Of a stretch of 64,000 nt of DNA, positions 3,697 through 60,310 are shown piece after piece (position 1 is the stretch's first letter; every line of letters begins with the position of its first letter). Position numbers and translations under genes: made by a program. The stretch comes from an uncultured Gammaproteobacteria bacterium (lineage in GTDB: Bacteria > Patescibacteriota > Patescibacteriia > UBA9934), in the NCBI GenBank assembly GCA_964452565.1, contig CAYVLY010000001.1, forward strand, positions 142,638 to 206,637, written 5' to 3'. The notes under the pieces are model-generated. The model did no database searches. It saw only the letters and a program-made list of their open reading frames with translations, and was not told the origin of the DNA.

Positions 3697-5520
3697 ATGT
3701 TGGACCCAAAGGACGAGATAAAGCAAAGACTCGACATTGTAGAGATGATTTCAGAGTATCTACCGCTCAAACCTGCTGGTTCGGGTGGATTTAAAGCATG
3801 CTGTCCATTTCATAGCGAAAAGACCCCCTCTTTTCATGTGTCCCGCGAAAAGCAGATTTGGCACTGCTTTGGATGCAATAAGGGAGGGGATCTTTTTGCA
3901 TTTTTAATGGATCTTGAGGGCTTGAGTTTTCCTGCAGCTCTAGAGCTCATGGCTGGCAAGGCAGGAGTCAAACTTCCAGAAAGATCAACAAGTCAAGCAT
4001 CAAGGCAGGCTAAAAAAGAAAGAGACGTTTTACTAGACCTTCACATCATTGCGCAAAAGCTATATACGACCGTGCTTAAGGAGCATGATCGGGCATCAGA
4101 AGCTAGAAAATACTTAGTCGACCGCGGGATCACGGAAAATCTTATTGATAAGTTTGGTCTTGGCTTTGCACCAGATGAATGGAGCATGCTTTCTTCTTTT
4201 TTTAGAAAACGCGGATTCAATGATCAGGTTATTATTAAAAGCGGTTTGGCAAAAAAGAAGTTGTCAGGTGACGGAATTATTGATCGATTCAGAAATCGAA
4301 TCCTAGTGCCACTTCACGATAGTCGTGGACGGGTAATTGGTTTTACTGGTAGATCATTAGTCGAGACTGACAAAAGCGGGCCTAAGTACTTAAATTCTCC
4401 TGAAACCGAGATTTATAACAAACGTGCAGTGCTTTATGGACTTCACCTTGCAAAGACTGCAATTCGAAGGGAAAAATCTGTGATCATAGTAGAGGGAAAC
4501 CTCGATGTAGTCGCTTCACATAAGGCAGGAGTTGAAAACATTGTAGCAAGCTCGGGGACAGCTTTGACCGAGATACAGCTTAAGACTTTAAAGAGACTCA
4601 CAGACAATCTGATCTTCTGTTTTGACTCAGATGATGCAGGGTTTGAAGCAGCGCGCCGCGGGATTCATTTAGCTCAGCAAATGGATTTTGATGTGCATGT
4701 CATATCAATTCCTAATGAGATGGGTAAGGACCCAGACGATGTTGTTCAGAAAAATCCTCAGGATTGGGTCAATATCGTGAAAGAGCCAATACACATCATG
4801 AAGTACTACTTTGATAGAATTTTTGAGAAAATTGATATATCAAATATTACTGAAAAGAAAAAAGTAGTTGCATTCATGCTCTCGGAGATATCAGCATATA
4901 CAGATGCTGTAGAGCGCGAGCACTGGCTAATGCAGCTAGCTGATAGAGCCAGGGTTGATATTCAGGTTCTTCGAAATGAGCTAAGGAACCACAGTCACGT
5001 AAAGAAACCACAAGAAAAACCTAAAATTGATCAGATTCCAGTGCAAAAACAGAGTAAGAATGACTCAGCCGTAAGCTTTCTCGTGGGGCTTATCTTGAGT
5101 GATGTTGATCAGACTTCAGAGATCTTGAGTAACCTTAGCGAGGATGTGGTCCAAAACGAACAACTCAAGAGAGTTTACAAAGATGCAAAGTCTGCGTATA
5201 ATCAGTCCAATGCGTCTATTAACGCGCAAAAAACACTTTTCTCAATCCTCCAGCAGCTCTATGAATCTGAGGATCGGCAAGATGATGCCGCATGCATTAA
5301 TGCATTAGTCCTCAAAACAGAGCAAACATTGGACGGATTCCAAGAGAAACATGTGCGCGAAGAAATAGATAGACATGTCAATATTTTAACCCAGGCTCCA
5401 CGTAAAAAGCACCTTTTGGAGCTGGAACGCAATATACGCCAGGCAGAAATGGCTGGTGACAAAGAACGCGCTCGTCAACTTACTGATGAGTATATGAATG
5501 TGCTCAGAAATAATTCCTGA
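3697..5520 (+). CDS. dnaG: DNA primase
   Basis: CHC2 zinc finger [14 protein letters not shown]...WHCFGC; TOPRIM region EGNLDV...DSDDAG; TGA stop. Confidence 0.9.
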
Positions 5521-23224: not shown

Positions 23225-23725
23225 ATGAACATTGCATTAGATGATAAGCTGGAGAAAGCAGTCCGACTGCTCATTGAGTACGTTCCTGAGGAAAAGGATC
23301 GAAAAAAGAACATAATTACACATGCTCTCAGGGTCGGAATGTACCTTTATGAGAATAATTACTCAGAAGATGTTGTAATTGCTGGATTTTTACACGATAT
23401 AGTTGAATGGACTGATAGCCCGCAGGAGACACTTCGGGAAGAATTCGGTCAGCATGTGTTGGATATAGTACTCGCAAATACTAAAGATAGAAATATTGAA
23501 GATAAGCCAGAGCGAAGAAGGGATATGATTGAGCGCTGTCAAAGCGTTGGGAAGGACGCCCTTATCGTGAAGGCCGCAGACACAATTGATAGCTATAACT
23601 TTTATAGATCGGCAAACAACCCAGATGAGACGCAAAGAGCAATCGACATAGCAAAACTTTTATCAAGCGTGGTTACACAGGAGGAGAAAGATCCAATTTT
23701 CGATAAGTTAAGTGCTCTTGAATAG
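23225..23725 (+). CDS. HD-domain phosphohydrolase
   Basis: HALRVGMYL ... AGFLHDIVE (H...HD motif). Confidence 0.6.
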   Translation: MNIALDDKLEKAVRLLIEYVPEEKDRKKNIITHALRVGMYLYENNYSEDVVIAGFLHDIVEWTDSPQETLREEFGQHVLDIVLANTKDRNIEDKPERRRDMIERCQSVGKDALIVKAADTIDSYNFYRSANNPDETQRAIDIAKLLSSVVTQEEKDPIFDKLSALE

Positions 23726-24172
23726 TTCTAACAGCATCAACCGTGCGGAGCCATGAAGGAGTGACCAGTTTTGGTCGCTTTTTCTTTTTGGTCACCCTTC
23801 ATGGCTGTCGCCCTAAGTGATACGAGCCCAGCGAGTATCTACTTCTGGGCGAGCCATAGTATAATTAGGGCATGTATTACGTTTACATATTAAAATGTAG
23901 CGACAACAAATTCTACACGTGATACTCTGCAGACTTAAAGAAAAGGTTGCAATTACACCTATCTGGACGAGTGTTCTCGACCAAGGGTAGATTGCCAGTC
24001 GAGTTAGTATTCTATGAGGCATTTATAAATCAGCAAGATGCCAAGCGTCGTGAGATGTACTTGAAGACCACTGCTGGCAAAAGAGCAATTAAACTCATGC
24101 TTCGCAAATATCTCGCAAAACAATAACTTACAGTGTTATTTTGTATACCCATCGTGAACAGCGGAACTGTGG
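23721..24172 (+). repeat. direct repeat copy 1 (~450 bp) carrying GIY-YIG gene; near-identical to 25603..26054
   Basis: Identical sequence apart from the first ~25 nt; contains long hairpin GCCATGAAGGAGTGACC...GGTCACCCTTCATGGC, a TATAAT box, the GIY-YIG ORF and a terminal hairpin. Confidence 0.85.
23872..24126 (+). pseudogene. GIY-YIG (UPF0213) gene with in-frame TGA at conserved Gly codon (disrupted under code 11; intact if UGA=Gly)
   Basis: MYYVYILKCSDNKFYT[TGA]YSADLKKRLQLHLSG...LVFYEAF...; TGA at 23920-23922 replaces the Gly of the YTG motif. Confidence 0.6.
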
Positions 24173-24204: not shown

Positions 24205-25065
24205 ATGATAGATAAACCAGTTCCCGAGGAGGCAAGAAAAGAATTTGAAAGGATGCAAAATCCAGAAATTGTCGCAACTGATTTAGAGGGTAATGCTCCT
24301 GAAGTTGGTGCTACAAAAATTATTATGCAGAGGCATGAAAAATATGTGCGGGGCGATGACGAGGGTCAGCCATTGGGTAGTCTAACTGAAGAATCAGCAG
24401 AAAAAGCATATCAACAAAGCAGAAGAATAGTTGAACAAATGCTAGATTCTATTGAGGATGATTTAGATGAGATCGATTTTCTTGTAGTTGGCAGTAGTAC
24501 ACAATATAAGGGCAAGGGACAAAGGAGCAGAGAGACTGCACAGCAAGCACTTCAAGCTTTACGTGACGTGCTTGAAGAGAGGGGTGTTGATGGTGGTCAG
24601 ATATTAAACAATAGATCAAAAGCAAAAGATGTAGCCACGATCACTCGAATGAGAGTAGATAGGATATTCAATGAATGGCCAGAGTACGCAGCTTTTCTTG
24701 AAGATAAATACGGAAATCAAACACAAAAATTTTGGCAGGCTTTTGAAGAAGATTGGCACCCTTATGAAAGAAGGGCATTTGGTGCAGAGGGGCCTGATGA
24801 AATGGACGAAAGATTTGCAAGTTATATAAAAACACTTGCTAAGTTTTCCGGTTTTCACCATTCAAAGCATCAAGATAGACGGCTGGTTCTCTGGAGCGTA
24901 TCGCATTACGATACAGTAAGTCCCTATATAAAACGTCACATAACTATGACGGATCCAAACCAATATGTGGCTGTTGATTACGGTGCAGGGATCAATATAG
25001 ATATTGATCCTGATGGGAATCCTACATGTGACTTTCGTGGGAAAAAATACGAAGTTAGTCTTTAG
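24205..25065 (+). CDS. histidine-phosphatase-superfamily-like protein (paralog of 28620..29522)
   Basis: RHEKY near N-terminus and LWSVSHYDTV (RH...SH motifs); aligns with the 28620 ORF. Confidence 0.4.
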   Translation: MIDKPVPEEARKEFERMQNPEIVATDLEGNAPEVGATKIIMQRHEKYVRGDDEGQPLGSLTEESAEKAYQQSRRIVEQMLDSIEDDLDEIDFLVVGSSTQYKGKGQRSRETAQQALQALRDVLEERGVDGGQILNNRSKAKDVATITRMRVDRIFNEWPEYAAFLEDKYGNQTQKFWQAFEEDWHPYERRAFGAEGPDEMDERFASYIKTLAKFSGFHHSKHQDRRLVLWSVSHYDTVSPYIKRHITMTDPNQYVAVDYGAGINIDIDPDGNPTCDFRGKKYEVSL

Positions 25066-25067
25066 AT

Positions 25068-25595
25068 ATGCTTACAAAGTTTTGTGACGCAGAAACGATC
25101 TTCAATAAGTTTCTAAAAAAGTATAAACAACATAAACGAGGTCTTTTCATCGTTGCACCATCGGGCGCAGGAAAGACATATTATGTTAATCATCAGGATG
25201 AATATGATTGGATTGATGGTGACGAAATTTGGATGGCAACAGGCGCTCAGCCTGACAGGGCATGGTGGACCGAGGGTTTAGAAGTTATAAATCACGTAGA
25301 TCAAAGGTGCGATGTTACAACTGAAGAGTGTAGACGTTTGGGATTATGGGTGATAGGAGCGTCCAACTCTTGGCTCATCCCTGATGCCGTAGTAATTCCA
25401 GATTTAAGAATTCAAAAAAAATACATAGTCAAGCGTGAAGACGAAGCATATGACGGAGGTGCAACGAGCAAGGACTTTGATCAAGTTATTTCTCATAGAA
25501 AGATAATTCTAAACCACGCTAAGAAAAATAAAGTGCCAGTATTCAAAACTATCGAGGAGGCAGTGGCTTTTCTCAGGAAGAAGTACAGTATGTAA
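25068..25595 (+). CDS. P-loop NTPase / small kinase-like protein
   Basis: Walker A VAPSGAGKTYYV. Confidence 0.45.
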   Translation: MLTKFCDAETIFNKFLKKYKQHKRGLFIVAPSGAGKTYYVNHQDEYDWIDGDEIWMATGAQPDRAWWTEGLEVINHVDQRCDVTTEECRRLGLWVIGASNSWLIPDAVVIPDLRIQKKYIVKREDEAYDGGATSKDFDQVISHRKIILNHAKKNKVPVFKTIEEAVAFLRKKYSM

Positions 25596-25602
25596 GCATG
25601 TT

Positions 25603-26054
25603 AATAGTTCTAATATCCTCCACGATGCGGAGCCATGAAGGAGTGACCAGTTTTGGTCGCTTTTTCTTTTTGGTCACCCTTCATGGCTGTCGCCCTAAGT
25701 GATACGAGCCCAGCGAGTATCTACTTCTGGGCGAGCCATAGTATAATTAGGGCATGTATTACGTTTACATATTAAAATGTAGCGACAACAAATTCTACAC
25801 GTGATACTCTGCAGACTTAAAGAAAAGGTTGCAATTACACCTATCTGGACGAGTGTTCTCGACCAAGGGTAGATTGCCAGTCGAGTTAGTATTCTATGAG
25901 GCATTTATAAATCAGCAAGATGCCAAGCGTCGTGAGATGTACTTGAAGACCACTGCTGGCAAAAGAGCAATTAAACTCATGCTTCGCAAATATCTCGCAA
26001 AACAATAACTTACAGTGTTATTTTGTATACCCATCGTGAACAGCGGAACTGTCA
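25603..26054 (+). repeat. direct repeat copy 2 (~450 bp) carrying GIY-YIG gene
   Basis: Offset 1882 bp from copy 1, identical interior. Confidence 0.85.
25754..26008 (+). pseudogene. GIY-YIG (UPF0213) gene copy 2 with the same in-frame TGA (25802-25804)
   Basis: Identical to 23872..24126. Confidence 0.6.
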
Positions 26055-26719: not shown

Positions 26720-26834
26720 ATTAACAAACGGAGCCACAAAAAGAGATAGGTATAATACATATCTCTTTTTGTTGTTTCGTGTCTGAGGGTTTTAAGCCAC
26801 TGGGTTCGGGCAGCTAGGATATAGGGAGGTGCCC

Positions 26835-26863
26835 TTGACTAGAATGATGTAAACATATACATT
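26835..26863 (+). promoter_or_regulatory. candidate sigma70 promoter of deoD cassette
   Basis: TTGACT-17nt-TACATT, then strong SD AAGGAGG 8 nt before ATG. Confidence 0.3.
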
Positions 26864-26898
26864 CTTTGTGACCTGGATTCCAACAAGGAGGTGAACCC

Positions 26899-27639
26899 AT
26901 GTCGATTCATATCGGAGCCAAGGAAGGGGAAATCGCCCCTGTCGTCCTCATGCCTGGGGACCCTGCGCGTGCCCGGCGCATCGCACAGAGCTTGTTCGGT
27001 GCTGACACCAGGCCTTACCACAAAGTGCGTGACAACCCAAGCTTCACCGGCCGTGTCACTCGGGACGGAGTCGAACTTCACGTCTCGGTGCAGGCATCGG
27101 GCATGGGCATACCCTCGTTCGGGATCTACGCTACAGAACTCTACGATGAGTACGATGTCAAGGTCATCATCCGCGTGGGCACGTTCGGTATCATGCATCC
27201 GGACATGAGCCCTGGAGATCTCGCTATCGCCCAGTGCGCGAGCACAGATGCGAGCTTCATCAAGCGCTGGTTCAAGGGTGCGAACTTCTCCCCACCCGCT
27301 GACCCTGAGCTGCTCTTCAATGCTCAGATGGCCGCACGCGAGCAAGGCCTGCAGGTACGTGTCGGCAACATCCTGAGCACTGACATCTTCTATGACAAGG
27401 ATCATCCGGAAGCGTGGAAGCTCTGGCCGCGCTTCGGTATACTAGGTGTTGAGATGGAGGCAGCGATGCTCTACACGCTTGCCGCACGCAGGCATGACAA
27501 GGGCTGTCGCGCACTCGCCATCCTCACTGCCAGCGACCACCTCGAGACGGGCGCTCAGATGAGTGCCGAGGAGCGCGAGACCTGCTTCCCAAGGATGCTC
27601 GACCTCGCCCTGGCTAGCGTCGTGCCTCTCTACGCCTGA
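26899..27639 (+). CDS. deoD: purine nucleoside phosphorylase, DeoD-type (high-GC, foreign-looking)
   Basis: MSIHIGAKEGEIAPVVLMPGDPARARRIA...GMGIPS...ILGVEMEAA... matches DeoD-type PNP throughout; GC-rich codon usage unlike neighbours. Confidence 0.85.
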   Translation: MSIHIGAKEGEIAPVVLMPGDPARARRIAQSLFGADTRPYHKVRDNPSFTGRVTRDGVELHVSVQASGMGIPSFGIYATELYDEYDVKVIIRVGTFGIMHPDMSPGDLAIAQCASTDASFIKRWFKGANFSPPADPELLFNAQMAAREQGLQVRVGNILSTDIFYDKDHPEAWKLWPRFGILGVEMEAAMLYTLAARRHDKGCRALAILTASDHLETGAQMSAEERETCFPRMLDLALASVVPLYA

Positions 27640-27673
27640 TCCGCAGTCGATTTCATCGTGACCATGCATGGTC

Positions 27674-27711
27674 CTCCCGCCCCAAGCTCTCTGAGCTGCG
27701 GCGGGATTTTT
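27674..27711 (+). terminator. rho-independent terminator of deoD cassette
   Basis: CCCGCC...GCGGCGGG hairpin followed by ATTTTT. Confidence 0.55.
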
Positions 27712-27754
27712 GCTAGAATGATGATGTTATAAGGAACTGGAAAAGTTTAACAAG

Positions 27755-50794: not shown

Positions 50795-52267
50795 ATGAAA
50801 ATAACAGCACAAAAAGGCGACATTCTAACTCAGGAGGTAGATATAAGGGTTGTAGGTATTTATGAAGGTGAAAATTGGGAAAATGACTTTATCCAACGCC
50901 TGGGCGAGGAAACTGGAGGAAAGCTAAAGATAGGAGCAAAAAAGAAAGAATTCGAAGGTAAGGTTGGGCAACTATTAACTTATTCAGGTCTTCTGATTGT
51001 AGGACTTGGAAAACAAGAAGATCTGGCAAAGTCGATAAGAGAAGTAACTGGACATATTTATCAACAGCTTCAGGCACTTCCTGTCACAAAGGTAGCAATC
51101 GAATTGTTTGGTGAAGATGATGAGAGCTATAATCCAAATGTCACAGGTCAAAAAATCGCCGAGTCCCTACTTCTTGCAGCGTACCAGTTTGATACGTACA
51201 AAAAACCAAAGCAGAAGAACATCCTCGAAGATGTCTTTTTGATTGCCGAGGATGGGCGTGATGCCAATAGAGCCCAAAAAGGAATTGAAAAAGCAGAAAT
51301 GCTCATCGATGGAGTAACAGTAGCACGTGATCTTGTCAATACTCCTGGACAAGACATGAAGCCAACACGACTTGCGCAAACCGCCCAGAAGATCGCAAAA
51401 ATGTCATCAAATATCCGTGTTCGAGTTTACAATCGCGAGCAGATTGAAAAAAAGAACATGAATGCATTCTTAGCTGTTGCTCAAGGATCAGATGCAGCAC
51501 CCCGACTCATTCATCTAATCTACAAGCCTGAAAAATCAAAAAAATCAGTTGCGATAGTTGGTAAAGGTATAACTTTTGATTCAGGTGGTCTTTCGCTGCG
51601 GCCAGCAAAGCCAATGGAAACCATGAAATGTGACATGGCAGGCGCAGCATCGGTACTCGGACTTTTTGCAATACTGGCACGTACTGAACTCAACATAGAA
51701 GTTCATGGAATTATTCCAGCAGCAGAAAACATGCCTTCTGGAAAAGCTATACGCCCAGGAGATATTATTCGAGCTGCTAATAAAAAAACTATTGAAATTT
51801 TAAATACAGACGCTGAAGGCCGCCTATTAATAGCTGATGCGCTAGTCTATGCTCAAAAACAAAAAGCAGACTATGTAGTTGACTTAGCAACCCTGACTGG
51901 CGCATGTATGGTCGCACTTGGAGAGGAAATCGGTGCTATCATGAGTAATGACACTAGACTTTCACAAATGCTCATTGAAAAAGCAGGTGAATCTGACGAA
52001 CATCTTTGGGAAATGCCTCTTTATAACAAGTATTCCGAGCTTCTTGAATCTGATATTGCTGATCTTAGAAATGTATCAACCACTCGATATGGCGGGACCC
52101 TTACAGCAGCACTATTCTTAAAAGAATTCATCAATAAGGATCAGAAGTGGGCACATATTGATATAGCTGGTCCTGCATTTGCTGAGAAACCAATATCGTC
52201 ATACTTAGGAAAAGGCGGGACTGGATTTGGAGTACGAACACTTCTCGGTTGGATCGAATCGTTGTAG
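50795..52267 (+). CDS. pepA: leucyl aminopeptidase (M17)
   Basis: NTDAEGRLLIADAL signature; VGKGITFDSGG. Confidence 0.85.
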   Translation: MKITAQKGDILTQEVDIRVVGIYEGENWENDFIQRLGEETGGKLKIGAKKKEFEGKVGQLLTYSGLLIVGLGKQEDLAKSIREVTGHIYQQLQALPVTKVAIELFGEDDESYNPNVTGQKIAESLLLAAYQFDTYKKPKQKNILEDVFLIAEDGRDANRAQKGIEKAEMLIDGVTVARDLVNTPGQDMKPTRLAQTAQKIAKMSSNIRVRVYNREQIEKKNMNAFLAVAQGSDAAPRLIHLIYKPEKSKKSVAIVGKGITFDSGGLSLRPAKPMETMKCDMAGAASVLGLFAILARTELNIEVHGIIPAAENMPSGKAIRPGDIIRAANKKTIEILNTDAEGRLLIADALVYAQKQKADYVVDLATLTGACMVALGEEIGAIMSNDTRLSQMLIEKAGESDEHLWEMPLYNKYSELLESDIADLRNVSTTRYGGTLTAALFLKEFINKDQKWAHIDIAGPAFAEKPISSYLGKGGTGFGVRTLLGWIESL

Positions 52268-52278
52268 AATTATCTCAT

Positions 52279-52509
52279 ATGAAAACAACAATCTATTCAA
52301 CTCCAACATGTCCATACTGTAAGCACGTAAAAGAATTTTTCGATCAACACAATGTAGAGTACGAAGAGATTGATGTATCAGCAGACCACGAAAAGGCACA
52401 AGAGATGATTCATAAATCAGGACAAATGGGCGTGCCAGTTATCGAAATCGGAGAGGATGTAGTAGTAGGATTTGATAAAGCAAAGCTTAAAGAACTACTC
52501 AATATCTAA
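52279..52509 (+). CDS. glutaredoxin-like protein (NrdH/Grx family)
   Basis: TCPYCK active site; ~77 aa. Confidence 0.65.
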   Translation: MKTTIYSTPTCPYCKHVKEFFDQHNVEYEEIDVSADHEKAQEMIHKSGQMGVPVIEIGEDVVVGFDKAKLKELLNI

Positions 52510-52512
52510 GTA

Positions 52513-52536
52513 AAAAACCGCTGCAAGGCGGTTTTT
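52513..52536 (+). terminator. rho-independent terminator
   Basis: AAAAAACCGCTGCAAGGCGGTTTTT. Confidence 0.55.
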
Positions 52537-52597
52537 AGTTTGTACAATTTAATCAAAATTTGATAAAACAAACCTAGTTTGCGCAAAGGAGGTTACC

Positions 52598-52816
52598 ATG
52601 TCGCAACGCGAGCCCATCACAGAGCTACGGATCAATCTGGTCGGTGAGACACTAATCACCCGCACCAGCTCCATGGAGATCGGCGTGATCATGCGTCAGA
52701 GGCTTGTGGAGCAGGGCAATATCTACGTCCACACTGACAAAGGCAGGATCGAGATCTACATCGTGTCCATGGAGCAGGAGGGTGGGGTACTCACTATTGG
52801 TGGCTACAAGTGCTAG
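52598..52816 (+). CDS. small hypothetical protein in high-GC patch
   Basis: Strong SD AAGGAGG; 72 aa; terminator hairpin CCGCCCacttCGGGCGG downstream. Confidence 0.35.
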   Translation: MSQREPITELRINLVGETLITRTSSMEIGVIMRQRLVEQGNIYVHTDKGRIEIYIVSMEQEGGVLTIGGYKC

Positions 52817-52967
52817 CCTGTCCACGTTTTTCGTCTCAACCGCCCACTTCGGGCGGTTATAGCTTTACAAAAATATCATTAATGCTAGTATAAATTTGCT
52901 TTTCGGGAACTCTCGATCTGCCGCCTGACACTGATGTCGGGACGAACCTATGGAGGTAATAAAACGA

Positions 52968-53030
52968 ATGATGGAATATCGTTCTGCGGTGGGTCCCCTC
53001 ACCGCGTGGTGGGATACCAGCGCCCACTAG
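52968..53030 (+). CDS. leader-peptide-like ORF with tandem Trp codons
   Basis: GGAGG then MMEYRSAVGPLTAWWDTSAH; followed by GC-rich alternative hairpins and a terminator. Confidence 0.25.
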   Translation: MMEYRSAVGPLTAWWDTSAH

Positions 53031-53095
53031 CGCCACGTGCTTCGCCGATGCGGCTACGTCACCTCTGTACGTACCCGCAACACCACCCTCGAATC

Positions 53096-53130
53096 GGGCC
53101 CCGCCAGCTACTGGCGGGGCACTGCTTTTC
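53096..53130 (+). terminator. rho-independent terminator / attenuator-like hairpin
   Basis: GCCCCGCCAG-cta-CTGGCGGGGC then ACTGCTTTTC. Confidence 0.45.
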
Positions 53131-53172
53131 AAAAACAAAACACCACTCGATAATCTTGAGCAGTGTTTTTAT

Positions 53173-53526
53173 CTATGCAGCGCGTTTATGAAGGTCGTAC
53201 TGGTCTTTCAACATCTCTTCATGCTCCTTAGCACCACGCATGAACTCCTCGGCTTTTAACTCATCCATCTCAGCGACCTGTCGCTTATGTTCTAGCTCAC
53301 GAGCCTTCCACTCTGCATGAACTTGCTCTGCCAACTTTTTTATCCTAATCCTTGTAGCCCGATCCCGAATCTTATAATTATTAAGCGCAGTCCATATGTG
53401 CTGGACACCGGTATGGGCTTTTCTCAAATCCCACGCCTCTTGAATCACTGCGCCATAATCATCTAAATCACGTTCGCGCTGTGATCTTCTACTCTCTGGA
53501 ACATCTCTGCGAACCTCAAATGACAT
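53173..53526 (-). CDS. hypothetical protein
   Basis: 117-aa charged helical ORF. Confidence 0.35.
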   Translation of the reverse strand: MSFEVRRDVPESRRSQRERDLDDYGAVIQEAWDLRKAHTGVQHIWTALNNYKIRDRATRIRIKKLAEQVHAEWKARELEHKRQVAEMDELKAEEFMRGAKEHEEMLKDQYDLHKRAA

Positions 53527-53529
53527 ACA

Positions 53530-54054
53530 TTACGCCTTACCAAGTGTCTCCTTATTCTCATCCCACTCCATTGGGCATAAATCTCCGGTCTCCAGCGCCT
53601 TCAGAACTCTAAGTGTCTCAGATGCTGATCGACCAACATTTCCAGCAGATACAACAATATACTTCACAACACCCTCAGGACTAATCAAAAACAGCCCACG
53701 CTCGGCAAGTCCTTCATCTTCATTATAAACTTGATAATCCTTTGATATTTGATGCGTAACGTCAGCCAATATCGGATACTTAACATTTGGCAAGTCAGCT
53801 TCAAACCATGCCTTGTGCGACCACTCTGAATCAGTAGATGCAGCAATAATCTCACAATTTAGATTTCTAAATTCCTCAGCGTGCTTTGCAAAACCCTTTA
53901 ACTCAGTAGGGCATACAAAAGTAAAATCTCGTGGGTAAAAAAACAAAGCTACCCATTTCCCCTTGTAATCAGAGAGGCTGATCTTTTTAAACTCTCCTTG
54001 ATGATACGCCATGACATTATTAAACTCTGGCGCCTTGGATTCTAATTGAATCAT
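53530..54054 (-). CDS. peroxiredoxin (AhpC/TSA family)
   Basis: FTFVCPTE peroxidatic Cys motif. Confidence 0.8.
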   Translation of the reverse strand: MIQLESKAPEFNNVMAYHQGEFKKISLSDYKGKWVALFFYPRDFTFVCPTELKGFAKHAEEFRNLNCEIIAASTDSEWSHKAWFEADLPNVKYPILADVTHQISKDYQVYNEDEGLAERGLFLISPEGVVKYIVVSAGNVGRSASETLRVLKALETGDLCPMEWDENKETLGKA

Positions 54055-59675: not shown

Positions 59676-59751
59676 TGGGGAGTGGAGAAGTGGATCAACT
59701 CGCCGTATCCAGATTTGGTATTCGCTGGTTCGAATCCAGCCTCCCCAACCA
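59676..59751 (+). tRNA. tRNA-like gene with non-canonical anticodon arm (identity unresolved)
   Basis: Perfect 7-bp acceptor TGGGGAG/CTCCCCA, T-arm GCTGGTTCGAATCCAGC, encoded CCA; only possible anticodon stem GTATC/GGTAT with loop CAGATTT leaves a 2-nt variable region. Confidence 0.35.
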
Positions 59752-59762
59752 AACCCTTCCCT

Positions 59763-59835
59763 AGGCCCTTAGCTCAGTTGGTAGAGCAACTGATTCTTAA
59801 TCAGCTGGTCGGCGGTTCGAGTCCGCCCGGGCCTG
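59763..59835 (+). tRNA. tRNA-Lys(CTT)
   Basis: Manual fold; anticodon loop TTCTTAA. Confidence 0.8.
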
Positions 59836-59853
59836 TTCACTTCTTTGTCCCTT

Positions 59854-59926
59854 GTGGGTGTAGCTCAGTTGGTAGAGCAAGAGACTGAAAATCTCTGTGT
59901 CGGGGGTTCGAGTCTCCCCATCCACG
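59854..59926 (+). tRNA. tRNA-Phe(GAA)
   Basis: Manual fold; anticodon loop CTGAAAA. Confidence 0.85.
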
Positions 59927-59938
59927 TTATTTCTTGAG

Positions 59939-60014
<76 letters not shown>

Positions 60015-60024
60015 CCTCTTCAGA

Positions 60025-60097
60025 ACGCGGTTAGCTCAGTTGGTAGAGCACCTGACTACGGATCAGGAGGTTACTGGTTCGAACCCAGTACCGCGTG
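60025..60097 (+). tRNA. tRNA-Arg(ACG)
   Basis: Manual fold; loop CTACGGA. Confidence 0.85.
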
Positions 60098-60099
60098 TT

Positions 60100-60171
60100 A
60101 CCCGGTTAGCTCAGCGGTAGAGCACCTCCTTGGTAAGGAGGAGGTCGTAGGTTCAAGTCCTGCACCGGGTG
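60100..60171 (+). tRNA. tRNA-Thr(GGT)
   Basis: Manual fold; loop TTGGTAA. Confidence 0.8.
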
Positions 60172-60180
60172 CATGATCGT

Positions 60181-60253
60181 GGGTTGGTAGCTCAGTTCGT
60201 AGAGCACCTGAATGGCATTCAGGGGGTCGCGGGTTCAAGTCCCGTCCAATCCA
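60181..60253 (+). tRNA. tRNA-Ala(GGC)
   Basis: Manual fold; loop ATGGCAT; G3:U70 identity pair present. Confidence 0.8.
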
Positions 60254-60310
60254 TGATCGTACTTCGCCGTTAGCATTCGTGCTGGCGGCTCTTCTTTTTT
60301 AATAAGATCC

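Follow-up and report, generated by a model that had tools for sequence, protein, structure and literature searches.

Introduction

What is a sequence that looks like the leader of a tryptophan (Trp) operon doing at a place where no trp genes follow? The question is raised by a short GC-rich patch in a 64,000-nucleotide stretch of DNA, hereafter the window, which spans positions 142,638 to 206,637 of contig CAYVLY010000001.1 (709,517 bp; assembly GCA_964452565.1) and is placed by GTDB in the Patescibacteriota. An initial annotation, made from the letters alone, had described at this patch an open reading frame (ORF) of 72 amino acids, here called orf72, and behind it a mini-ORF with tandem Trp codons, hairpins and a terminator, and had proposed either a foreign regulatory fragment stranded by horizontal transfer or a novel small regulatory unit. 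The analysis reported here indicates that the patch is a foreign islet, that orf72 is a protein gene, and that the hairpin-rich sequence behind it, here called unit 2, does not switch like a Trp attenuator when its folding is modelled.

A foreign islet between two convergent terminators

The region 52590-53140 had been described as far richer in GC than its flanks, and composition agreed with this: GC content was 0.543 over 52598-53135, as compared with 0.413 for the whole window. When GC was averaged over 200 nt, it peaked at 0.555-0.585 within the patch, lay at about 0.36-0.42 in the upstream flank, and stood at 0.45-0.49 just downstream before declining to about 0.40. An AT-rich dip (GC 0.41) is present inside the patch at 52817-52899. 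The islet is the segment 52537-53136, about 600 bp, and fits exactly between two native convergent terminators, that of the glutaredoxin gene grx on the left and that of the sod-prx-hyp117 operon on the right (Table 1). The gene hyp117 starts 3 nt past the prx stop codon and is weakly homologous (E=8e-5) to a gene of 120 aa that occupies the corresponding position in the closest relative (locus L002, 5451-5810); hyp117 therefore belongs to the native operon, and the islet ends before it.

The foreign character of the islet is clearest in orf72. GC at its first, second and third codon positions (GC1/2/3) is 0.52/0.36/0.77, and this pattern holds over its full length, indicating a true coding sequence with the codon usage of a GC-richer genome; among the window's 53 native ORFs of 150 aa or more, GC3 is 0.28-0.46. 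As first described, orf72 (52598-52816) carries a perfect Shine-Dalgarno (SD) motif, AAGGAGG at 52586-52592, 5 nt ahead of its ATG. None of the 53 native ORFs has an SD motif (0/53). Only 1/54 window ORFs of this size has one, the exception being a purine nucleoside phosphorylase (PNP) gene in the first of the window's two GC-rich patches. A TAWAWT box resembling a -10 element is present within -20 to -5 of the ATG in 7/53 native ORFs. The sequence AAGGAGGT was found upstream of genes in the two GC-rich patches only, and foreign GC3 and an SD are combined in just two ORFs of the window, orf72 and the PNP gene. In a published survey, an anti-SD motif was detected in only about 48% of Parcubacteria 16S rRNAs (PMC9297842).

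The host, a Candidatus Uhrbacteria of the candidate phyla radiation (CPR) with a small AT-rich genome, and its relatives place the islet in a variable site. The flanking M17 aminopeptidase has its best relatives, at 81, 75 and 73% identity, in metagenome-assembled genomes of Candidatus Uhrbacteria or Patescibacteria, and the order M17-grx followed by prx-(sod)-DUF3179-rsmI is conserved across Uhrbacteria. For comparison, 86 loci were fetched from other genomes, including 80 related M17 loci. In the relatives, grx and prx lie 18 to about 2700 bp apart, with only 60-110 bp between them in several genomes; in the closest relative the gap is occupied by unrelated genes. Nothing similar to 52540-53175 was found by BLASTN or nhmmer in any of the 86 loci, the 80 related ones included. 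In Uhrbacteria, the convergent junction of grx and prx (window 52510-53530; L002-L035 among the relatives) is a hot spot of varying cargo. Together, the GC3 of orf72, the presence of an SD in a genome whose native genes have none, and the absence of the patch from the related loci strongly support the earlier proposal of a foreign fragment, probably acquired by horizontal transfer. In one of the relatives (L018, 1900-2960) the same gap holds genes of 65-70% GC, a prepilin-like gene of 126 aa and a gene for a Gly-rich membrane protein, which are unrelated to the patch.

A source for the islet was sought among other DNA. No relative was found by blastn of phage and plasmid sequences or by scanning viral contigs, both by DNA pattern and by protein. 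Six degenerate 24-mers, of which five cover the RNA part of the patch, likewise found none when metagenome contigs were scanned. Repeats flanking the islet (TGCTTTTC, present twice, and GCTTTACAAAAA/GCTTTTCAAAAA) are short and in line with chance expectation. In addition, the last codons of grx, ATTTGATAAAGCAAAGCT (52470-52487), recur with 16 of 18 positions matching at 52558-52575, just upstream of the orf72 SD. By our estimate about 0.05 such recurrences are expected, so that the match is borderline; it could be an insertion scar.

orf72 is an orphan protein gene

orf72 is a genuine protein gene with foreign codon usage and without recognizable kin. A search for homologues of the 72-aa protein, suggested from the outset as a check, found none in the protein collections searched: a word-indexed search of 5.8e9 protein clusters gave no homologue, an exhaustive HMMER search over 1.84e9 representatives returned, besides orf72 itself, only a eukaryote-like repeat protein regarded as junk, and there was no match in Pfam, PHROGs, PADLOC, NCBIfam or a sequence search of the PDB. 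A single-sequence AlphaFold2 model was all-beta and unreliable, with a mean predicted local distance difference test score of 44, and its Foldseek matches are meaningless. The idea that orf72 encodes a TRAP-like Trp RNA-binding protein was dropped as unsupported. A kinship with the 111-aa islet gene of another contig (L089, described below) was likewise dropped (E=7.4).

The AT-rich sequence between the grx terminator and orf72 contains TTGTAC-N17-ATAAAA, a putative promoter that was not called by the promoter scan. Within this putative promoter region, at 52548-52568, lies the near-palindrome TTTAATCAAA/TTTGATAAAA, possibly an operator for a DNA-binding protein. At the other end of the gene, where orf72 had been credited with its own terminator, a strong hairpin is indeed present, but it lacks a U-tract and was not called by the terminator scan; it is a weak terminator at best.

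Unit 2 is a hairpin-rich, non-coding sequence with a Trp mini-ORF

Unit 2 is predicted to give a transcript of about 230 nt, the ends of which we place from a promoter-like site and an intrinsic terminator. The promoter-like site may alternatively be read as TTACAA-N18-TATAAA. Sites matching the consensus at 9/12 positions were no rarer in real sequence than in shuffled sequence, and this one is suggestive only. The terminator is a firmer feature, and the strong GC-rich structure reported earlier for the end of the unit is there: its stem arms, GCCCCGCCAG/CTGGCGGGGC at 53098-53120, are followed by ACUGCUUUUC, although the U-tract consists of four U only and lies 5 nt past the core stem.

Folding of unit 2 is stronger than its composition would give. 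The + strand has a minimum free energy (MFE) of -96 kcal/mol with z of -4.2 to -4.3. When the terminator was removed, z was -2.65 for the + strand as compared with -1.34 for the - strand, and equally GC-rich coding controls gave z of -1.5 to +1.0. The hairpins at 52922-44 and 53049-79 and the terminator were each matched in stability by at most 1/200 shuffles. The 5' and 3' ends of the unit are also able to pair with each other (52902-07 with 53088-93).

No codon periodicity was seen over unit 2. The two longer ORFs of the ORF track, 52857-53138 (-) and 52934-53191 (+), had been suspected of being non-coding translations; GC is flat over their codon positions (0.50-0.57) and they have no protein relatives, in agreement with that suspicion. 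A chimeric query covering three frames of the region found no protein homologue among 5.8e9 clusters. The Rfam scan proposed earlier, made with Rfam 15 over the whole window at the gathering score and over 901 nt and 251 nt at E<=10, gave no match for the patch, neither to an unrelated RNA family nor to Trp_leader, and returned only tRNAs and noise. ARAGORN found no tRNA or tmRNA within the patch. A hammerhead was considered and dropped, the CUGAUG at 52931-36 being merely a hairpin loop, as were domain 5 of a group II intron and an integron attC site, which would need a GTTRRRY core that is absent here.

The mini-ORF itself is as originally described, a short GGAGG-led frame with tandem Trp codons near its stop. 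The two codons, UGG UGG at 53008-53013, lie five codons ahead of the stop. An alternative start at 52950 would extend the product to 26 aa. The SD-to-ATG spacing of 11 nt is long, and both candidate ATG codons fall within the 8-bp hairpin at 52966-52984. An ATG-started mini-ORF containing a Trp pair arose in 0.6% of 5000 dinucleotide shuffles and, when an SD was also demanded, in 0/5000. Among the 1015 ATG mini-ORFs of the window, nine encode a Trp pair and this one alone has an SD as well. A metagenome scan for the back-translated peptide TAWWDTSAH gave a single chance match, inside a gene of 1023 aa.

Unit 2 does not switch as a Trp attenuator in folding models

The likeness to the E. coli trp leader, trpL (Rfam RF00513), is superficial. 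Both have GC-rich hairpins, a terminator and a short SD-led ORF that ends soon after an adjacent Trp pair (AWWDTS in unit 2, GWWRTS in E. coli). Alternative pairings, the absence of which would have told against the earlier proposal, do exist: three partners are open to the Trp-codon stretch UGGUGGG, namely CCCACUA (53023-29), CACCAC (53081-86, the partner chosen in the MFE fold) and CCCGCCA in the 5' arm of the terminator (53100-06). No attenuator switch emerged from them. In an equilibrium model, the probability of the terminator stem was 0.994 whether no ribosome was present or a ribosome was stalled at the first Trp codon, stalled at the second, or positioned at the stop. In a nascent-transcript model, in which the RNA was cut just ahead of the 3' arm of the terminator and the ribosome position was varied, pairing of the 5' arm was 0.65 for the free RNA, 0.50 and 0.66 for ribosomes at the first and second Trp codons, and 0.54 at the stop. 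The same script applied to the E. coli trpL control gave 0.17, 0.64 and 0.17, which is the known switch. When the ribosome was modelled on the second Trp codon of the mini-ORF, the freed segment GGUGGG (52988-93) paired with the terminator arm. Since the Trp codons are the main alternative partner of that arm, a stalled ribosome would cover or remove an antiterminator, not create one.

Above all, there is no gene for such a switch to act on, which already contradicts an attenuator. No + strand gene lies past unit 2: the following 40 nt are taken up by the terminator of the convergent operon (53137-69), and beyond it stand hyp117, prx and sod on the - strand, the same hypothetical, peroxiredoxin (AhpC/TSA) and superoxide dismutase (Fe/Mn) genes whose opposite orientation had been pointed out earlier. 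Unit 2 differs from trpL in having no trp or other gene downstream, in lacking, according to the model and its E. coli control, a 2:3 antiterminator specific to a stall at the Trp codons, in the roughly 68 nt, with two additional hairpins, that separate its stop codon from the terminator, and in matching no Rfam family. It matched neither Trp_leader nor T-box even at E<=10 on 251 nt. The segment GGUGG..ACC..GCG (53007-53022) loosely recalls the T-box sequence (RF00230) and is able to pair with the 5' arm of the terminator, but the two strands lie about 85 nt apart, neither a stem I nor a specifier architecture could be recognised, and again no gene follows.

The attenuator architecture was thus seen correctly as far as the Trp mini-ORF and the terminator are concerned, while the ribosome-dependent switch, the downstream gene and the Rfam match that would go with it were not found. 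The tandem Trp codons ahead of hairpins and a terminator, the alternative partners of the Trp-codon stretch and the release of 52988-93 by a ribosome on the second Trp codon all speak for attenuation; the near-constant pairing of the terminator arm, as against the change from 0.17 to 0.64 in the control, speaks the other way, as do the constant terminator probability of 0.994 and the lack of a downstream gene. As judged from these models and from the gene order, unit 2 is not a working ribosome-mediated Trp attenuator, a function we regard as very improbable, and the look-alike should not be annotated as a Trp regulator.

Table 1. Positions of features at the islet and its surroundings, and of PNP islets (window coordinates unless a locus is named)
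Feature	Position	Strand	Details
M17 aminopeptidase gene, 3' end	upstream of grx, within 52000-53800		
grx, glutaredoxin, 76 aa	52279-52509		Pfam PF00462, E=1.4e-21
grx terminator, native, AAAAACCGC/GCGGTTTTT	52513-52536	+	-12.8 kcal/mol; T-run after; left edge of islet
Region upstream of orf72	52537-52597	+	AT-rich, GC 0.352; contains TTGTAC-N17-ATAAAA, near-palindrome and SD
orf72, 72 aa, protein-coding ORFan	52598-52816	+	GC1/2/3 and SD
Hairpin 3' of orf72, AACCGCCC/GGGCGGTT	52838-52858	+	-15.1 kcal/mol, z -4.6; followed by AUAGCUUUAC
Promoter-like site, TTTACA-N16-TAGTAT	52864-52891	+	preceded by TG; 9/12 consensus matches
Unit 2, predicted ~230-nt transcript	52899-53130	+	58.5% GC, hairpin-rich, non-coding; codon-position GC flat
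Hairpin H2, CGCCUGACA/UGUCGGG.CG	52922-52944	+	-11.5 kcal/mol, z -3.7
Mini-ORF, MMEYRSAVGPLTAWWDTSAH, 20 codons	52968-53030	+	GGAGG at 52952-56; ATG ATG at 52968 and 52971; stop TAG 53028-30
Hairpin H3, 8 bp	52966-52984	+	predicted fold, inside mini-ORF
Hairpin H4	52986-53005	+	predicted fold, inside mini-ORF
Hairpin H6, UGCGG.UACGUCA/UG.ACGUA.CCGCA	53049-53079	+	-13.7 kcal/mol, z -3.8
C-rich segment, CACCACCC	53081-53088	+	partner of Trp-codon segment GUGGUG (53006-11) in MFE fold
Intrinsic terminator of unit 2	53095-53130	+	10-bp perfect stem (9 GC) at 53098-53120, CGG/CUG extension, then CUUUUC; -26.2 kcal/mol with extension, z -4.8
Bidirectional terminator of sod-prx-hyp117 operon, native, AT-rich	53137-53169		-14.1 kcal/mol on - strand, then UUUUGUUUU; right edge of islet
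hyp117, native gene	53173-53526	-	
prx (AhpC/TSA peroxiredoxin) and Fe/Mn sod	beyond hyp117	-	operon with hyp117
PNP islets	window 26780-27725; L083 4001-4735; L086 1130-1810; L087 2570-3310; L088 4001-4726; L089 3950-4726		

Origin of the islet and nature of unit 2

The explanation that we favour, with about even confidence, is that a horizontally acquired segment of about 600 bp, consisting of an ORFan and a leader-like unit of its donor, has lodged between the terminators of grx and of sod-prx-hyp117 and that the second unit now yields a dead-end transcript. Such a segment would have brought in two conventional bacterial expression units. One would be orf72, a true protein gene that is led by a perfect SD and shows donor-type codon usage; the other would run from the promoter-like site through about 230 nt of hairpins, with the SD-led Trp mini-ORF among them, to the strong intrinsic terminator. 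Unit 2 would most likely be a donor leader or small-ORF sequence that came along with orf72, and it would probably have no dedicated function in its present host. Because the modelled terminator forms at any ribosome position and no gene follows, unit 2 could give at most a short, constitutively terminated transcript in this genome. The one effect that could be counted as certain would be to halt transcription of the islet short of the convergent antioxidant operon. A small foreign islet with an ORFan is a known kind of object. The patch shares with such islets and ORFan cassettes its atypical GC content and codon usage, foreign translation signals, a variable intergenic site and absence in relatives; it differs in being very small (0.6 kb) and in lacking an integrase, a transposase, a tRNA target and flanking repeats.

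Several observations weigh against this explanation. No donor sequence was found, and carriage from a donor is something that we infer. No integrase, transposase or other mobility gene and no att site was found over 48-58 kb of the window, nor was a convincing target-site duplication seen. The folding models are equilibrium and truncated-transcript models and not true co-transcriptional kinetics. Above all, an SD, an ATG and an in-frame Trp pair are hard to obtain together by chance, as the 0/5000 shuffles illustrate. A non-random mini-ORF, hairpins that outdo shuffled sequence and better folding of the + strand would fit an RNA or a peptide under selection, and an 'inert' unit 2 leaves the mini-ORF and the hairpins unaccounted for.

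These features would be accommodated if unit 2 were a stand-alone functional small RNA (sRNA), possibly of dual function (an RNA and a 20-aa Trp peptide), that acts in trans and was acquired with orf72. Attenuator RNAs and leader peptides that act in trans have a precedent in rnTrpL/peTrpL of Sinorhizobium meliloti, an attenuator-derived trans-acting sRNA and its leader peptide that are conserved and lie upstream of trpE(G) (PMC6614838, PMC7298713). Like rnTrpL, unit 2 is a terminated leader with a Trp mini-ORF and could in principle act in the same way; unlike rnTrpL, it is an orphan without homologues and is about twice as long. Its own promoter-like site and terminator, the fold z of -4.3 with + strand asymmetry, and the improbability of the SD-led mini-ORF favour an sRNA. 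On the other hand, the absence of an RNA or peptide homologue in the collections searched leaves no sign of selection, the start codons are buried in a hairpin behind a long SD spacing, translation led by an SD may be inefficient where native genes have none, and the promoter match is no better than shuffle expectation. We consider this reading rather unlikely. A bolder version appears quite doubtful. In it, unit 2, an attenuator-shaped transcript with Trp codons and no longer tied to a biosynthetic operon, would be a mobile leader-peptide sRNA complete in itself, which moves with orf72 (perhaps its partner) and acts in trans by sensing Trp-tRNA charging or translation status in a CPR host whose native genes do without SD initiation.

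Other readings take unit 2 as a remnant or as part of a larger unit. The mini-ORF frame is open over 52950-53153 bar one TAG, the only in-frame stop among 68 codons, and its would-be third positions are somewhat GC-richer than the others over 52988-53107 (0.77-0.80 versus 0.60-0.63), as might be seen in a pseudogene of a donor protein. A GC of about 0.6 at its second positions would be unusual for a coding sequence, however, the periodicity does not exceed about two standard deviations for 30 positions, and neither this frame nor the two others found a protein homologue among 5.8e9 clusters, so that a pseudogene seems improbable. Alternatively, orf72 and the mini-ORF might form a single foreign two-gene operon with a spacer between them and the GC-rich tail as a structured 3' untranslated region ending in the terminator. 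Read-through is plausible, since the hairpin after orf72 has no U-tract, and both ORFs have an SD in an SD-less genome, but no conservation of the mini-ORF was seen in the metagenome scan; on sequence this arrangement is inseparable from the favoured islet of two units, and we think it likewise improbable. If unit 2 were instead a diverged housekeeping RNA of the host itself, of the 6S or SRP kind for instance, this would explain its composition, native tRNA genes of the window being 54-56% GC, and the pairing of its two ends (52902-07 with 53088-93). There is nevertheless no Rfam match, no counterpart at the syntenic site of relatives or in the metagenome scan, and no resemblance of the fold to the 6S rod, and the unit adjoins a clearly foreign gene in a variable spot; a native RNA is accordingly hardly credible. 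An assembly chimera, suggested by the abrupt shift in composition, is the least credible of all: the Logan assembly of run SRR8146440 contains a 21-kb contig that spans both GC junctions and agrees with the window at 100% identity over 1401 nt, the junctions lie at terminators and not within genes, and a similar GC-rich, SD-led PNP islet is present in a further five CPR assemblies. After the favoured explanation and the sRNA, we thus rank the pseudogene, the two-gene operon, the native RNA, the attenuator and the artefact as progressively less likely.

A recurrent PNP islet and other features of the window

The first GC-rich patch of the window carries a DeoD-type PNP gene (26899-27639; GC3 0.72; AAGGAGGTGAACCC-ATG). 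GC-rich PNP islets (59-67% GC, GC3 0.71-0.90) are found again in the five further CPR assemblies. In four of them the gene is led by an SD, and four of the hosts have AT-rich genomes, in which the genes next to the islet are 32-42% GC. The proteins share only 53-72% identity with the window PNP, and the islet flanks, compared for L083-L085, show no synteny with the window. The recurrence would be accounted for either by repeated acquisition from a GC-rich pool or by a foreign composition kept over the long term. A nearly SD-less Uhrbacteria genome thus keeps small GC-rich cassettes with canonical SD motifs, terminators and promoter-like sequences. Should this hold more generally, it would be relevant to the ways in which reduced, DNA-scavenging symbionts take up foreign genes and express them, and to the question whether SD signals are still read by their ribosomes.

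Several further observations were made at the PNP islets. In L087, PNP adjoins genes for Y1 and DDE transposases. In the window, TTGACTAGAATGATG (26835-26849) and TTGCTAGAATGATG (27710-27723) flank the PNP cassette; by our estimate, chance can give an exact repeat of 11 nt within about 1 kb, and the pair could represent either a duplicated promoter or a repeat at the junction. Beside the PNP islet of L089, a CPR contig of 653 kb, the segment 4800-5310 contains a perfect TTGACA-N17-TGgTATAAT promoter, which is followed by a GC-rich, orphan-looking ORF of 111 aa (4917-5252; GC3 0.79) where the source record calls an 89-aa gene on the opposite strand.

Elsewhere in the window, a direct repeat of at least 300 nt, probably about 400 nt, at 98% identity was found at 23721-24126 and 25603-26008; each copy contains an identical 59-aa ORF (MQLHLSGRVF...), and two genes lie between them (24205-25595). 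Finally, the first tRNA (59676-59751) of a seven-tRNA array at 59676-60254 was given a four-base anticodon, 'ccag', and no identity by ARAGORN, and it scored 41.8 with Rfam as compared with 60-72 for its neighbours.

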